Source: a virus
Lineage: Duplodnaviria; Heunggongvirae; Uroviricota; Caudoviricetes
DNA length: 18,266 bases
Reading direction: 5' to 3' (one strand)
Virus record (IMG/VR): IMGVR_UViG_2698536651_000007
The translations under genes and the position numbers were made by a program. Position 1 is the first letter of the stretch. Every line of letters begins with the position of its first letter. Shown in pieces: positions 2,216 to 14,013 of this stretch. A model generated the notes under the pieces. The model saw nothing but the letters and a program-made list of their open reading frames with translations, was not told the DNA's origin and ran no database searches.

Positions 2216-2421
2216 TTCATTTTCACTTTTTTAAATCCAACGACAGACGGCTGGCATTTAAGTATTGTGAAATATTATCAAATGTAATCATCATTGATTT
2301 ACAAAAGATACATTTTGCCCCGAAAGGATTCATGTCAGAAACATCAAAAGATGATGTTCTATACTGGGAACCATGACAACACGGGCATCTAAAGTGAATA
2401 TGGTTTGTAATATTGTCTACC

Positions 2422-2634
2422 TCAAAGCGCCACTACATGAACAGCGGCAGGACCTTTAGGTCCGTTCTCAATACCAAATTCAACTTCCTGATTCTCAGTT
2501 AATGTTTTGAAATCGTTGCTCTGAATTGCTGAGAAATGGACAAACACATCTTTGCTGCCATCTTTCGGCGTGATGAAACCAAAACCTTTTTCAGGGTTAA
2601 ACCATTTCACTAAACCAGTCATTTTGTTAGACAT
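2422..2634 (-). CDS. cspI: Cold-shock protein CspI-like (70 aa, CspA family)
   Basis: [70 protein letters not shown] carries the RNP1/RNP2 cold-shock-domain motifs (KGFGFI, VFVHF). Confidence 0.9.
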
Positions 2635-2996
2635 AATTATTACCTTTTGAAGAAATTAGCCCTTGGGCAGAATGGTCCGAAAAAAAATATCAGAGAGAAA
2701 AACCAACAAGGAAATCTCAAGAGGTACAAATAATAAAATTATAACAATGACTGCTTCAGATAAATTTGTAACAAACCAGAACACCATTAACGCATGATTA
2801 ACCACCCATAGCAAGGATTACTTTTGTAAAGAAAAACACAGCAATGAAAGAATAGCTTTATTTATTAATAAAACGTGTCATTCTGATTAAGACCTTTTAT
2901 CTTACCCTTAAGATTTCAGGAATTTTGGCTCATGGAAGAGTCCTTTTTATTTAAATTTTACATTCCGCGATGTAAATGTTCCGATTTAATATTACC

Positions 2997-4020
<1,024 letters not shown>

Positions 4021-4024
<4 letters not shown>

Positions 4025-4332
4025 AGATATTTATGATGAGGACGCTCGTGCTTATTGGCAGGATTTTCAATCTTAAAGGAGTACTGATGCTGCAGATAAG
4101 ACTCAACTTTTTCTGACAATTTTTCTGCTACTTCCAGGAAGACTTGCCGGACGCTCCTTCTGGCTGCTGCCTCATAAAACTCCAGCGCAGCTCCTTCAAC
4201 ACGGTCCATGGCGACATCCAGGTCAAAAATTTCACCGTCAAAGCGTTCTTTGTCCTGTAAGGCTACAGTTACCGTAACTTTATTCTCAAAATTACGGACT
4301 CCTTTCACAACCAGTTCATAGTCTTGAGTCAT
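4021..4332 (-). CDS. ydfR: Conserved prophage protein between holin and endolysin (ydfR-like, DUF1327 by recall)
   Basis: ATG with GAGGAGAG SD; 103 aa; the ATGA junction couples it to the endolysin. Confidence 0.75.
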
Positions 4333-4336
4333 TGGA

Positions 4337-4552
4337 TTACTCTCCTCTCGCAGCCTTACGCCTGTCTTCTTTAATCTTGAAATAAAGATTTGTCAGATAC
4401 GTCAGCAGGCCAAAAACCAGGCTACCCAGCACACCGATTGCAGCCCACTGTGACGGAGTTACTTTATCGAGTAACTGCAATGCCCAGAAACCAGCATTAC
4501 CCGCCGATGTGCCATAGGCAACACCTGTTGTTAACTTATCCATTGATTTCAT
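4337..4552 (-). CDS. essQ: Class II pinholin, phage 21 S-like, with dual-start motif M-K-S-M
   Basis: [71 protein letters not shown] has two TM segments and matches S21 as recalled. GGTGAGGA SD upstream of the first ATG; the ORF-track 5' extension has no RBS and is rejected. Confidence 0.85.
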
Positions 4553-5023: not shown

Positions 5024-5305
5024 TGAGATTGTGGTGCTTTTTGTGGGAGTCATCCACTTACGCACTTTGTTTTGCCATGCCAGCAGTTAGCTTCTGCTGT
5101 AAAACTATTCATGCAGCAAACCTGCACTTCACCACAATGGTTAGCATACTTTTCCTGATTAAGATTTTGCCAAATATGCTAGCCATTGTTTCATGTATTG
5201 GACCTCCTTACTTTTTATTAAAGAGATCCAATATTCACTACTCTGTCCGTATCTCTACTCAGGCATCAGCCTTCTTCGTTATCGTATACAGACGAGCGAT
5301 GAATT

Positions 5306-5521
5306 TTAATCAGTAATGATGACATTTGCTGCTGCAGGACCTTTAGCACCACTCTCTATAGAGAAGGTAACCTTTTGACCTTCAAATAAGGTTCGATAAT
5401 TATCATTCTGAATCGCAGAAAAATGCACAAACACATCTTTACTACCATCAACAGGAGAAATAAAGCCGAAACCTTTATCAGCGTTAAACCATTTTACTAA
5501 ACCAGTCATTTTATTTGACAT
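5306..5521 (-). CDS. cspB: Cold-shock protein CspB-like (71 aa)
   Basis: [71 protein letters not shown]. Confidence 0.9.
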
Positions 5522-5821
5522 TCTACATTCCTTAACTTGAGCCTTTCGGCATAAATGGTTTGCATAACAGAAACGACTTCGTACTTAATTGGAGAGACTC
5601 AAAGAAGGAATAAGTGAATAACACCTGAAATGAGAACTGCTTTAGTAAACTACTTCGTATATCGTCTGTTCTTCAAACCGACGCAATCATTAACGCATAG
5701 TTGAACATATGAAGCAATGTTTATTTTAGACATCCAGCCATCTTCAACCCCATCAAAAAACTATAGCTTTCTTCAGGAACGTGTGTATAGTGCGCCAAGT
5801 TATCAGTATTAAGGAATTTTT

Positions 5822-6034
5822 TTGTCCCGTAAAATGACAGGAATTGTCAAAACCTTTGACGGCAAAAGCGGCAAGGGTCTTATCACCCCATCCGATGGTC
5901 GTATCGATGTCCAGCTTCATGTTTCAGCGCTCAATCTCCGCGATGCAGAAGAAATTACCACCGGATTACGCGTGGAATTTTGCCGGATAAATGGTCTGCG
6001 TGGCCCTTCAGCTGCCAATGTTTACCTTTCATGA
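5822..6034 (+). CDS. cspF: Cold-shock-domain protein CspF/CspH-like (70 aa), TTG start
   Basis: [77 protein letters not shown] 6 nt before the TTG. Divergent from cspB. Confidence 0.85.
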
Positions 6035-6088: not shown

Positions 6089-6178
6089 ATGAATAACCCC
6101 GTCTGTCTTGATGACTGGTTGATTGGCTTTAAAAGCTTATGCTGTACTTTGGCCGTAATAGCTCTGCTAATAATATAA
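6089..6178 (+). CDS. Candidate 29-aa hydrophobic small protein
   Basis: GGAGAG SD (6078-6083) 5 nt before the ATG at 6089; translation [29 protein letters not shown]. Below the ORF-track size cutoff. No homology evidence. Confidence 0.3.
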
Positions 6179-6326
6179 TAAGCAGACTCATTGTGTTTAG
6201 GGACATTGTACTGGAAGAAAACATTTTAAACATCAGGCAAATAACCAAGTCACCAGCTAAATAATAAGTTAACAGACATGAGTCCCGGGATGAGATTCAA
6301 CATTACCATTGCCCCATTTAAAGCAC

Positions 6327-6350
6327 AAAACCCGCTCATCAGCGGGTTTT
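6327..6350. terminator. Bidirectional intrinsic terminator (10-bp stem aaaacccgct/agcgggtttt, loop catc); candidate tR' on the minus strand and cspF terminator on the plus strand
   Basis: Perfect hairpin with T-tracts on both strands. Confidence 0.65.
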
Positions 6351-6395
6351 CTACTTTTTCTTAACGTCGGGTATACAAAGCCCATCGTTGAAAAA

Positions 6396-6424
6396 ATTTT
6401 ATCCATATTTTTTGAAAAATGCAA
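6396..6424 (-). promoter_or_regulatory. Candidate late promoter pR' (minus strand: -35 TTGCAT, 17-bp spacer, -10 TAAAAT) immediately downstream of Q
   Basis: Reverse complement of 6396-6424 reads TTGCATttttcaaaaaatatggaTAAAAT. Lies about 30 nt after the Q stop and about 45 nt before the terminator, the arrangement expected for a Q-dependent pR'/qut/tR' unit. Confidence 0.45.
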
Positions 6425-6455: not shown

Positions 6456-7208
6456 TTATCTCGTCACCTTCCTCAATTGCGCTTCCGCGTATGCTTCTTC
6501 CTGCCAGCACTTTGTTACCAGTTTACCAATGACGTCCGCATACCCCTTATACCACTGATAATCGGTCAGGTCTGGTACCAGCTTCTGGACATGACGTCGT
6601 GCCAGCGTGGTCGGTAAACGACTAAACCGGTTTCCATTACAACGCCCACAAATCTTATATACCGGTACGCCATGAAACCGGGTTCTTTTTTCATCCAGAA
6701 CAATCCCTTTACCCTTACACCCTCTGCACGCTGTGCTGGCTTCGCCCTTACCATGGCAATGCTGACATAGTTCCTTCACCCATTCTTCCTTGATTACAGA
6801 TTCCCCGCGTCTGTAGTGTTTCACCACTTCGCGCAATACATTATAAAATCCCGTACCTGAACAATGCTCACAGCGAGCCTTACTTGCCGCAGACCTGGAG
6901 TAATCAGCAAAGGCAAAACTCACGAGGTAAGGAATAATCTGTAACCGGATTTCTTCACTCAATTTGTTCAATGTCGGGTTATCCAGTGCCATCGCGTAAT
7001 TTAGCAGGCCTTCAATCGCAAACTGAGGGTCCTGAACACCAACTTTTGCCAGAAATAAGGCCAACCCAAGTGGTGCTTTCGACTGCACCATCCCCTGCGC
7101 TGCCATTACATCCGTAATTGTTAAACAACCGGTGCCTGTCGCTGGAGCGTCATCGCTCAATTTTGGAGATTTTGGGGAGTAATATTTTGGTAAGGCTTCA
7201 AGGTTCAT
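6456..7208 (-). CDS. quuQ: Late-gene antiterminator Q (phage 21/82-type, 250 aa)
   Basis: MNLEALPKYYSPK… with four CxxCxGxG-like repeats (CEHCSGTG, CQHCHGKG, CRGCKGKG, CGRCNGN). GGAGAA SD before the ATG at 7208; the ORF-track upstream extension is rejected. Confidence 0.85.
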   Translation of the reverse strand: MNLEALPKYYSPKSPKLSDDAPATGTGCLTITDVMAAQGMVQSKAPLGLALFLAKVGVQDPQFAIEGLLNYAMALDNPTLNKLSEEIRLQIIPYLVSFAFADYSRSAASKARCEHCSGTGFYNVLREVVKHYRRGESVIKEEWVKELCQHCHGKGEASTACRGCKGKGIVLDEKRTRFHGVPVYKICGRCNGNRFSRLPTTLARRHVQKLVPDLTDYQWYKGYADVIGKLVTKCWQEEAYAEAQLRKVTR

Positions 7209-9085: not shown

Positions 9086-9241
9086 TTACTCCTCAGGTTC
9101 GTAAGCTGTGAAGACAGCGACCTCCGTCTGGCCGGTTCGGATTCGTACCTCGCAGAGGTCTTTCCTCGTTACCAGTGCCGTCACTATGACGGTTAAACAG
9201 ATGACGATCAGGGCGATTAACATCGCCTTTTGCTGCTTCAT
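9086..9241 (-). CDS. hokD: Hok-family membrane toxin HokD/RelF (51 aa)
   Basis: Reverse-complement translation MKQQKAMLIALIVICLTVIVTALVTRKDLCEVRIRTGQTEVAVFTAYEPEE. Not in the ORF track (under 60 aa); the + strand ORF 9108-9329 is its antisense. Confidence 0.9.
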   Translation of the reverse strand: MKQQKAMLIALIVICLTVIVTALVTRKDLCEVRIRTGQTEVAVFTAYEPEE

Positions 9242-9852: not shown

Positions 9853-9877
9853 TGTAATTACAAATGTCATTACAAGT
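9853..9877 (-). promoter_or_regulatory. relBE promoter/operator (relO) with palindrome ttgtaattacaa and a repeated attacaa motif
   Basis: Palindromic TTGTAA/TTACAA element directly upstream of the relB start, consistent with the known RelB2-RelE operator architecture. Confidence 0.5.
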
Positions 9878-10010
9878 ATCGCACTACAACATGCTTAGGG
9901 CAAGTCACGAAGGAAGTCAGAAAGTAGTCGTAAGAACGGTGATCACTGTCCGCTTTGTGCCAATAGCGGACATTGCTGGCTCATGGTATGTTAGTTTAAG
10001 GAGGCAGGTT

Positions 10011-11033
10011 ATGCCCTGTATTTCGCTGTGGTATAATAGTTGCGCAATTGATACAAGGGAGCGTTACATCGTGAAAATTGTTTTCGAGGTTAATGGAAAG
10101 AAAGTTCCACTAAAATCTTTAAAATACATAAGCAAAAAAGATCAACTCGAAGTAATGAAAAACTGGTTCTTTGAAAACTTTGAAGATCCGGCAAATGCTT
10201 GTCCGTATGAAAGTAGAGAAGGTGGCTATGCTTACATATATGGCGGGCCGTATGATGCGAGCGAAGAACTACAATCCATCTTCGGTCAATATGTTAAATC
10301 TGAGTATATTGAGGAATTAGTAGATGAATTACAAACACAATGTTTTGACTGGTCTGGAAACTCAAATAATATAGATGATTGGTACGATGATGATATCTAC
10401 GACGCTGTAACGTCTTCCGGTAATCCGTATTTAAAATTCATTGATAATATCGATAAAATAAAAAAACTTGCAAAAGATAAAACTGAACAACAGCAAAAAA
10501 ACCACTTGCTTAGTTTGCTCTACACGAATGTTATTACAGCTTTGGAAACGCTTTATGTTGAGCTATTCATTAATTCTATAGAGAAAGATGATGTCTACAT
10601 AGCCAATTGTATAGAAAAAGGTAAGACTGAATTTAAAGTAAGCAAAGATATTGCTGCGTTGCCTTTCAAGGGTGAACCCATCGAGAAAATTAGGGGAGAG
10701 CTAATCAGGTCAATCAAGGAACACTTGATCAGTGCAAGCTGGCATAGCACTAAAAAGGTAATCGACCGCTATGAAGCTACATTCGATATAAAAGTACAAA
10801 AAGACTGTCCGATAGAAGCTATTGAATTGGCAACCCTCAATCGAAATCACTTAGTGCATCGTGGTGGAAAGGATAAAGAAGGGAACCTCGTAGTGATTAC
10901 AGACCAGGATCTTGAAACGCTGATTGAAAATGCATCGAACCTGGCAATTATGCTCTACAACAGTTTAAATGTAGCAACGAATAAAACCACCATTTTGCAA
11001 CCAGATGACAAACCGTTCATTCATGAATTTTAA
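10011..11033 (+). CDS. Hypothetical protein A of the AT-rich two-gene cassette (340 aa from ATG 10011; 320 aa if GTG 10071 is used); HEPN-like RNxxxH motif near the C-terminus
   Basis: ATG 10011 has AAGGAGG at 6-nt spacing; the alternative GTG 10071 has AAGGGAG and the candidate promoter upstream. Motif NRNHLVHRGG at 10839-10868. Visibly AT-rich relative to flanks. No homolog recognised. Confidence 0.7.
   Translation: MPCISLWYNSCAIDTRERYIVKIVFEVNGKKVPLKSLKYISKKDQLEVMKNWFFENFEDPANACPYESREGGYAYIYGGPYDASEELQSIFGQYVKSEYIEELVDELQTQCFDWSGNSNNIDDWYDDDIYDAVTSSGNPYLKFIDNIDKIKKLAKDKTEQQQKNHLLSLLYTNVITALETLYVELFINSIEKDDVYIANCIEKGKTEFKVSKDIAALPFKGEPIEKIRGELIRSIKEHLISASWHSTKKVIDRYEATFDIKVQKDCPIEAIELATLNRNHLVHRGGKDKEGNLVVITDQDLETLIENASNLAIMLYNSLNVATNKTTILQPDDKPFIHEF
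10029..10037 (+). promoter_or_regulatory. Candidate extended -10 element TGgTATAAT for the downstream AT-rich cassette
   Basis: tgGTATAATag at 10029-10039. It would place a transcription start about 10 nt upstream of the AAGGGAG SD that precedes the GTG at 10071. Confidence 0.35.
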
Positions 11034-13720: not shown

Positions 13721-14013
13721 GTTCAAAGGGGACATTACAGCTTGGTGTTAACAATAGCCTGCTTCTCCGTGCCTTTCGGCACGTAAGAGGCTAACCTACA
13801 TGTGTCTAGCATGAAATTGGCCTCAGATTAATGTTAAGCGTCTTGCAGGACGCGTAATGTTAACTGGGGCTTTTCTCTATCTGCCGTTGGTGTCCATGCC
13901 CGAGGCAGATAGCCTCAAGCACCCGCAGTCATTCTACTTAACTAAGATTTCCCCGCAAACCGTTTTTGTCCAGCACAGTAAATATCCAACTAAACCAATG
14001 GAGTTCGCTGTAT

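Follow-up and report, generated by a model that had tools for sequence, protein, structure and literature searches.

A probable lambda-type late-gene regulatory cassette (pR'-qut-tR') downstream of quuQ in the Qin prophage of Escherichia coli

The DNA analysed in this work (IMG/VR virus record IMGVR_UViG_2698536651_000007, Caudoviricetes; 18,266 nucleotides, called "the window" hereafter over its whole length) carries, directly downstream of a gene for an antitermination protein Q, a short stretch of the minus strand (positions 6,327 to 6,424) which raises the question of whether it controls the late genes of a prophage, and whether it is active. An initial annotation, made from the sequence, had placed there a Q-dependent late promoter (pR') with a short leader and a terminator. 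The site was very probably a late-gene regulatory cassette of the lambda type (pR'-qut-tR') belonging to the Qin prophage. Over the 251 bases around it, identity with Qin, a cryptic prophage of E. coli K-12 MG1655, was 100%. Window positions were converted to the K-12 chromosome (NC_000913.3) with an offset of +1636033, confirmed base for base across 201 nt and by where ydfT lies. Of 5426 complete E. coli genomes, 1629 had a match to the 251-base site, and the Qin cassette locus was at least 99% identical in 1249 records of the 5426 genomes searched. In the RefSeq annotation of K-12, no feature was annotated between ydfT and ynfS/cspF, which are on the opposite strand.

Start, pause and end of transcription downstream of quuQ

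The gene upstream of the site, ydfT or quuQ (6456-7208, minus strand; stop codon TAA at 6458-6456), encodes an antiterminator of 250 amino acids, labelled "putative antitermination protein Q" in RefSeq. It matched Pfam PF03589 (E = 4e-54), plus the DnaJ-type PF00684, and aligned with Q-lambda (PDB 7UBM) over both halves (E = 5e-36), with about 42% identity to lambda Q. In PMC9388147, where this type of Q-dependent cassette is defined, PF03589 is equated with the Q-lambda family, separate from the Q21 and Q82 families; the proper comparators were therefore lambda, P22 and phi80, and not phages 21 and 82, as had been proposed in the initial annotation. The N-terminal 44 residues, which form the torus or RNA-exit nozzle in lambda, were well conserved in QuuQ (G39 kept, V6 replaced by L). 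Its zinc-ribbon arm was about 45 residues longer than that of lambda Q and contained two additional CxxCxGxG motifs (residues ~113-160), resulting in four CxxC motifs versus two in lambda Q. The arm of lambda Q has a single zinc site and touches both the Q-binding element (QBE) and sigma region 4.

The proposed promoter was found 31 nt past the Q stop codon, at the distance and on the strand annotated initially: a -35 hexamer TTGCAT (6419-6424), a 17-nt spacer TTTTCAAAAAATATGGA (6402-6418) and a -10 hexamer TAAAAT (6396-6401), all on the minus strand. Hexamers and spacer length were as described, but the term "near-consensus" was an overstatement, as the -35 hexamer coincided with the consensus TTGACA in only 3 of 6 positions (5 of 6 for the -10). 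The two hexamers alone were within what is expected by chance, because promoter-like sites were not enriched in the region (13 vs. 9.5 ± 2.6 in shuffled sequences). The composite motif TTG-N20-TA-N3-T-N6-AACGATGGG had a single occurrence in the window and none in 200 shuffles that preserved dinucleotides.

Published positions on NC_000913.2 were transferred to NC_000913.3 with an offset of +1976, which we take to be correct (it comprises IS1, IS5 and 1-bp differences) and which placed the transcription start site at 6389 and the pauses discussed below at 6373 and 6372. The start site (+1, an A; 6389, minus strand) was mapped by differential RNA sequencing (dRNA-seq) at 1640446(-) of NC_000913.2, that is, 1642422 in version 3 (Thomason 2015, tabulated in PMC7876045), demonstrating sigma70 promoter activity from this segment in cells whose phage had not been induced. 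Six nucleotides (TTTTTC) separated the -10 hexamer from this start and were followed by AACGATGGG (6381-6389, minus strand), formed by the -10-like AACGAT (+1 to +6) and GGG, which matched the sigma70-dependent pause element of lambda pR' in sequence and spacing. The two promoters aligned without gaps: TTGACT-17-TAAATT-TGACTC-AACGATGGG in lambda and TTGCAT-17-TAAAAT-TTTTTC-AACGATGGG in Qin.

Pausing at this element has been recorded in vivo. Two sigma70-associated pauses, at 1640429 and 1640430 (minus strand, NC_000913.2), were obtained by RNET-seq with sigma70 pull-down (Sun et al. 2021, PMC7876045), and corresponded to window positions 6372-6373 (minus strand), 16 and 17 nt past the start site, the same distance as in lambda. 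Their scores in delta-greAB cells were 6881 and 5783, the stronger pause ranking 12th of 12,211 sites and 4th of the 407 sites of the class "G1d", ascribed by the authors to a downstream -10-like element and likened to lambda pR'; in wild-type cells, the pause was also there, with a score of 1186 (PMC7876045). The pause element AACGATGGG was the most diagnostic feature of the cassette, and had gone unmentioned in the initial annotation. Three further very strong, promoter-proximal sigma70 pauses of the same data set (NC_000913.2 576452(+), 571159(+) and 570856(+)) presumably belong to the cryptic prophage DLP12, one of them, we believe, just upstream of the holin gene, and regulatory sites of prophages may account for several of the strongest "host" pauses. 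The word "prophage" was absent from the main text of the RNET-seq paper (PMC7876045), no entry near the site was found in the Cappable-seq supplements, and a full-text literature search for quuQ/ydfT found no paper on this promoter.

The terminator tR' (6320-6350, minus strand) consisted of a hairpin at 6350-6327 (stem of 10 bp, loop of 4 nt), beginning 45 nt past the -10 hexamer, in agreement with the initial annotation, and followed by GTGCTTT on the minus strand. The core stem in the minus-strand RNA was CCCGCU/AGCGGG, followed by the U-tract UUUUGUGCUUU, and the 72-nt segment 6389-6318 folded at -30.4 kcal/mol vs. -13.4 ± 2.7 in shuffles (z = -6.4). A generic terminator scan called the plus strand only, because it absorbed the UUUU into the stem; the hairpin was flanked by an A-tract and a T-tract, and was thus terminator-like on both strands. 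A 3' end at 1642356(-), classified as "orphan", was present in the Term-seq data of Adams et al. 2021 (PMC7815308, supplementary file 1) and corresponded to window position 6323, the C of GGGUUUUGUGC in the terminator U-tract. It occurred three times in the file, which spanned three growth conditions, and the two readable entries had flanks identical to the terminator. The curated Term-seq list contained no plus-strand 3' end at the hairpin.

Both ends together defined a pR'-tR' RNA of 67 nt (6323-6389, minus strand), analogous to the lambda 6S RNA (194 nt); published data from uninduced MG1655 already contained the start and the end of this short, stable transcript. It contained an A-rich stretch, AAGAAAAAGUAGAAAA, ahead of the terminator U-tail. 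StxS of the Stx phages is likewise a short RNA from a constitutive, antiterminated late promoter in a lysogen; it arises through processing of a longer precursor, binds Hfq, and its targets have been demonstrated (PMC7547250). No Rfam family reached its gathering threshold between 6250 and 6460: the best match was isrK (RF01394; 16.6 bits vs. a gathering threshold of 50), which was generic and was rejected, and the remaining matches were terminator-driven.

In summary, sigma70 RNA polymerase starts constitutively at A6389, pauses 16-17 nt further on while it retains sigma70 and, without Q, stops in the U-tract of the 6350-6327 hairpin, giving the 67-nt RNA. The site was raised above chance by the composite motif, the fold, the conservation across genera and the published 5' end, pause and 3' end, which fell exactly on its elements. 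The lambdoid pR'-qut-tR' architecture proposed initially was supported: a Q of the Q-lambda family upstream, the lambda geometry, the mapped start, pause and 3' end, and the co-occurrence with Q in viable phages described below. As in lambda, a constitutive promoter and an intrinsic terminator precede the lysis genes.

Conservation of the cassette and its spacer, and a possible 5' hairpin

Relatives were collected by a profile scan of genome contigs and by tblastn across phages, replacing a scan of viral contigs with QuuQ which retrieved only relatives 94-100% identical and was of no use for covariation. Many matches of 33% identity from unrelated genera were lambda DNA and were excluded. These included Q proteins of 207 amino acids, 33-34% identical to QuuQ (the level of lambda Q itself), on small contigs of Oceanobacillus, Kitasatospora, Bradyrhizobium, Segatella and others (loci L111-L136). 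In L111, the sole such locus inspected, the DNA downstream of Q matched lambda pR', and contamination of the assemblies with lambda control DNA is the most likely origin of these contigs.

The cassette was found after QuuQ-type Q genes, 63-100% identical over the whole set, in Escherichia, Shigella and Salmonella and, with Q proteins 63-72% identical, in Enterobacter, Mangrovibacter, Kosakonia, Phytobacter, Atlantibacter, Scandinavium and Buttiauxella, that is, in at least 10 enterobacterial genera, as well as in several phages, and the DNA past the terminator varied. The -35 began with TTGCA in 14 of the 16 QuuQ-type cassettes (TTGTC in Atlantibacter and TTGCT in Scandinavium being the exceptions). 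In the 63-72% relatives, the -10 and the 6 nt were kept and led to AACGATGGGC (replaced by AATGATAGGC in Scandinavium); a short leader and a GC-rich hairpin with its T-run came next. The pause element was nearly invariant among relatives, and the terminator stems varied in sequence with their pairing always kept; the stretch between the predicted 5' hairpin (see below) and the terminator was poorly conserved.

The phages SfV, mEp460, 118970_sal3, 2H10 and Tritos and the Stx2c-converting phages carried true homologues, with 80-100% DNA identity from the 3' end of Q through the terminator; in SfV, mEp460, sal3 and the Stx2c-converting phages the homology ended within a few bases past the terminator. 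The hairpin was annotated as a putative rho-independent terminator in the SfV record, and no promoter or pause element was annotated in the records of these QuuQ-type phages. The terminator was followed directly by the holin gene in sal3, and by methylase and tRNA genes in the Stx2c-converting phages, an arrangement which we take to be the one preceding stx2, the stx genes being outside the DNA examined. Genes for tRNAs were seen 3' of tR' in several cassettes of the Q-lambda family, about 100-150 nt away in L108 (2467-2720), L141 (1368-1523) and L148 (1416-1572), and about 2.3 kb away in L004 (4928-5160); the types across these four were Met/Arg, Asn/Thr and Asn/Arg. Expression of such tRNA genes would require antitermination, unless they have their own promoters.

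The same order of elements was found in P22, phi80, mEp237 and phages of Erwinia, Proteus, Klebsiella and Cronobacter, and in prophages of Pectobacterium, Citrobacter, Yokenella and E. albertii. The first terminator ended between +50 and +76 in 31 of the 36 cassettes scanned (the others were Enterobacter, +77; phi80, +78; L106, +107; Pluralibacter, +163; and lambda, with none within 260 nt), so the short leader is the family norm and the 194-nt 6S RNA of lambda an outlier. Four CxxC motifs were present in 20 and three in 8 of the 36 family members sampled, the two-motif form of lambda and P22 being in the minority.

Outside the QuuQ cluster, the closest promoter was that of phi80 (TTGCAT-T-TCGCGGAAAAACTGGA-TAGATT vs. 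TTGCAT-T-TTTCAAAAAATATGGA-TAAAAT in Qin), although its Q (gp17) belonged to a separate cluster with less than 55% identity. Like QuuQ, phi80 Q was longer than lambda Q and had extra CxxC motifs. Its pause element was AACGCT vs. AACGAT in Qin, and its discriminator was one base longer. The phi80 GenBank record annotates the pR' hexamers (including the equivalent of the -35), a Q-binding site just past the -35 and, some 75 nt downstream of the start, a terminator; TTTCAAA in Qin (6417-6411) matched this Q site in position. The spacer pattern TTC-RR-AAA...TGG was kept inside the QuuQ cluster and differed across Q clusters, and the Qin and lambda spacers differed in 6 of 17 positions. Among 36 cassettes, the Mantel correlation of Q identity was higher with promoter-plus-spacer identity (r = 0.65) than with identity from +10 to +30 (r = 0.34), both tests (P = 2e-4) taking no account of shared ancestry or linkage. 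Pairwise identities over 20-30-nt segments were noisy, some values of 0.8-0.9 between the initial transcribed regions of unrelated cassettes being alignment artefacts, and only the Mantel trend and one pair were used: the Klebsiella phage ST16-OXA48phi5.1 and the QuuQ-type cassette of Kosakonia, 95% identical in the transcribed region, but 58% in the spacer and 40% in Q. These comparisons fit a pause module of general use combined with a binding element specific to each Q, and suggest, by a correlative link between Q class and spacer class, that the QBE is located inside the spacer.

The 67-nt RNA was predicted to begin with a hairpin (6363-6389, minus strand), the minimum free energy fold pairing +1 to +4 with +24 to +27 and +6 to +9 with +19 to +22. 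In the family, pairing is possible between the first 4-5 bases of the transcript and a (U)CGUU some 20-27 nt further on, and the partner changed along with the pause element. The two arms were AACGA/UCGUU in lambda, P22 and Proteus, AACA/UGUU in Pectobacterium, Erwinia and Salmonella phages, and AAUGA/UCAUU in Citrobacter and Yokenella; intermediates with U.G pairs also occurred. None of the 5' helices taken singly was significant against shuffles (P mostly 0.2-0.6). Because MAFFT aligned the initial transcribed regions without gaps, so that their 3' arms were not in register, a swap test was used instead of pair counting: the leader had its own complement in 28 of 35 non-redundant cases (permutation P = 5e-5, uncorrected and with relatedness ignored). 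Covariation of the 5' hairpin across cassettes of the Q-lambda family is therefore suggestive. Tentatively, the pause element might have a dual role, the DNA halting the sigma70 polymerase for Q loading and the RNA (+1 to +4/5) serving as the 5' arm of the hairpin, although we consider this doubtful. If true, a hairpin at +1 could shield both the late transcript and the 67-nt RNA against decay that depends on the 5' end or, alternatively, act after the RNA threads through the Q nozzle.

Late genes and other features around the cassette

The late genes were on the same strand as pR' (4552-2997, minus strand), identified from Pfam and RefSeq as the holin gene (4337-4552), ydfR (4021-4332), the lysozyme gene rrrQ (3491-4024) and rzpQ (Rz; 2997-3494). 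Between tR' and these lysis genes were cspF(+), ynfS(+), cspB(-) and ynfU(+). The gene cspF (5822-6034, plus strand) is convergent with pR' and upstream of the 6350-6327 hairpin on its own strand; ynfS (6089-6178, plus strand), a 29-amino-acid open reading frame (ORF) between cspF and the hairpin and also convergent with pR', encodes a validated small protein (PMC6001520); and cspB (5306-5521, minus strand; Pfam, RefSeq) is downstream on the pR' strand. This was the layout foreseen in the initial annotation, which had put the lysis genes more than 1.8 kb downstream, past cspF on the opposite strand and cspB. The insertion of cspF/cspB before the holin gene distinguishes Qin from lambda. The gap is no argument against a late-promoter role, because the viable phages 2H10 and Tritos share the layout, with the order Q-pR'-tR'-(cspF)-cspB-holin; SfV, sal3 and mEp460 had the cassette without the cspF/cspB insert.

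The proposed mechanism follows from homology with Q-lambda. At the pause, sigma region 2 would re-bind the -10-like AACGAT (+1 to +6), as the identity with lambda suggests. QuuQ, once made, would bind the spacer TTTTCAAAAAATATGGA, specific to its Q type, and dock on the paused complex. Its conserved N-terminus would form, together with NusA, a nozzle on the RNA-exit channel, and the polymerase would then pass tR' and later terminators. Readthrough would produce RNA antisense to ynfS and cspF, cross cspB together with its terminator, produce antisense RNA to ynfU and reach the genes for holin, YdfR, lysozyme and Rz.

Several other features of the window were recorded. A further minus-strand 3' end (1642188, window 6155) appeared within ynfS in one Term-seq list; transcription from pR' past tR' would be antisense to this gene. 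The Rfam "cspA thermoregulator" matched at 5290-5682(-) and 2395-2780(-) (158.8 and 112.8 bits), spanning the 5' untranslated regions and genes of cspB and cspI, cold-shock morons located within the prophage late operon. A match to the sok antitoxin RNA (13753-13924, minus strand; 104 bits), about 4.5 kb from a hokD-like ORF (9086-9241), points to a second hok/sok locus within the window. The ORF at 9864-11033(+) started as K-12 ydfV does, but encoded 389 amino acids vs. the 101 annotated for YdfV in K-12. Beyond relB, the window seems to differ from K-12 MG1655, and its source may be another strain with a less decayed Qin-like prophage.

Alternative explanations and the meaning of the cassette

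Three other explanations of the site were considered. The cassette might be a fossil which now serves as a small RNA (sRNA) gene only, pR' and tR' being active, antitermination lost, and the 67-nt RNA selected as a trans-acting regulator similar to StxS. Both ends of the RNA were detected in uninduced K-12, the 3' end three times in the three-condition file; the locus was at least 99% identical in the 1249 E. coli records mentioned above; the A-rich AAGAAAAAGUAGAAAA preceded the U-tail; and StxS is a precedent for a pR'-tR' by-product becoming an Hfq-dependent regulator (PMC7547250). The Q ORF, however, was intact, its product shared 94% identity with the QuuQ-type Q found in other E. coli, and a full-length Q (250 amino acids) was present in phages such as SfV and mEp460; no sRNA family of Rfam was matched (isrK being the best, far below threshold); and the leader between the 5' hairpin and the terminator was poorly conserved. 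We regard this explanation as rather unlikely, and an sRNA function would be compatible with a lambda-type cassette and not exclusive of it.

Much less probable was a chance promoter-like sequence beside a terminator of cspF-ynfS, with the hairpin serving the plus strand and the minus-strand features being incidental. The plus-strand-only call of the generic scan, the lack of enrichment of promoter-like sites and the orientation of cspF and ynfS towards the hairpin agree with this explanation, but the data contradict it: start site, pause and 3' end were all measured on the minus strand, no plus-strand 3' end was listed at the hairpin, and the cassette was kept beside Q in phages devoid of cspF (SfV, mEp460, sal3 and the Stx2c-converting phages), in which the homology stopped just past the terminator. 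A leader coding for a small protein was equally improbable: an AUG at +5, inside the conserved block, opens the frame of a listed ORF of 51 amino acids (6269-6424, minus strand), but this ORF begins upstream of the start site, the AUG has no Shine-Dalgarno sequence, the measured 67-nt RNA ends ahead of any stop codon, the frame was not kept in relatives (which had indels and unrelated downstream sequence), and the conservation of ACGATGGG was accounted for by the pause element. The small-ORF explanation was rejected, given the absence of a stop codon in the RNA and the unconserved frame.

The assignment of the site to the lambda-type cassettes also has to be weighed against several features which do not favour it. 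The -35 hexamer was weak (3/6; TTGCAT vs. TTGACT in lambda), the +1976 offset between genome versions was an assumed value, and the Mantel correlations have the limit given with them. Lambda has a -35-like element (TTGACT) beside its pause element, in the place of which Qin has TTTTTC, and QuuQ, a Q of 250 amino acids, has an enlarged arm with two zincs vs. the single zinc site of lambda Q; the details of Q loading may therefore differ from lambda. In the lambda cluster, the TTGAC element is the seat of sigma region 4 in the Q-lambda loading complex (PMC9388147). It was found only in the cluster of lambda, P22, Pectobacterium and Yokenella and was absent from Qin, and is a trait of this subgroup which does not define the family. 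Because this element is absent and the arm has two zincs, the arm and sigma region 4 may touch each other in another way than in lambda, as judged from sequence comparison. Finally, Qin is cryptic, and Q may never be expressed in K-12, in which case the cassette would now only make the short RNA.

Published data showed that the late-promoter cassette exists and is active; it is an ordinary representative of a well-known type and leaves the textbook picture unchanged. What was new is that it was unannotated in K-12 RefSeq and that existing data sets had not previously been connected to it; the assignment names and explains three K-12 items, namely a dRNA-seq start, one of the strongest chromosomal sigma70 pauses and an "orphan" Term-seq 3' end. 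It also provides a native, single-copy chromosomal model for a variant of the Q-lambda family, with a two-zinc arm and a qut devoid of the -35-like element, and the Qin Q/qut pair could separate the general parts of the lambda loading mechanism from the special ones. If the link to stx2 holds, this Q/qut pair would be relevant to toxin expression in the Stx2c-converting phages.

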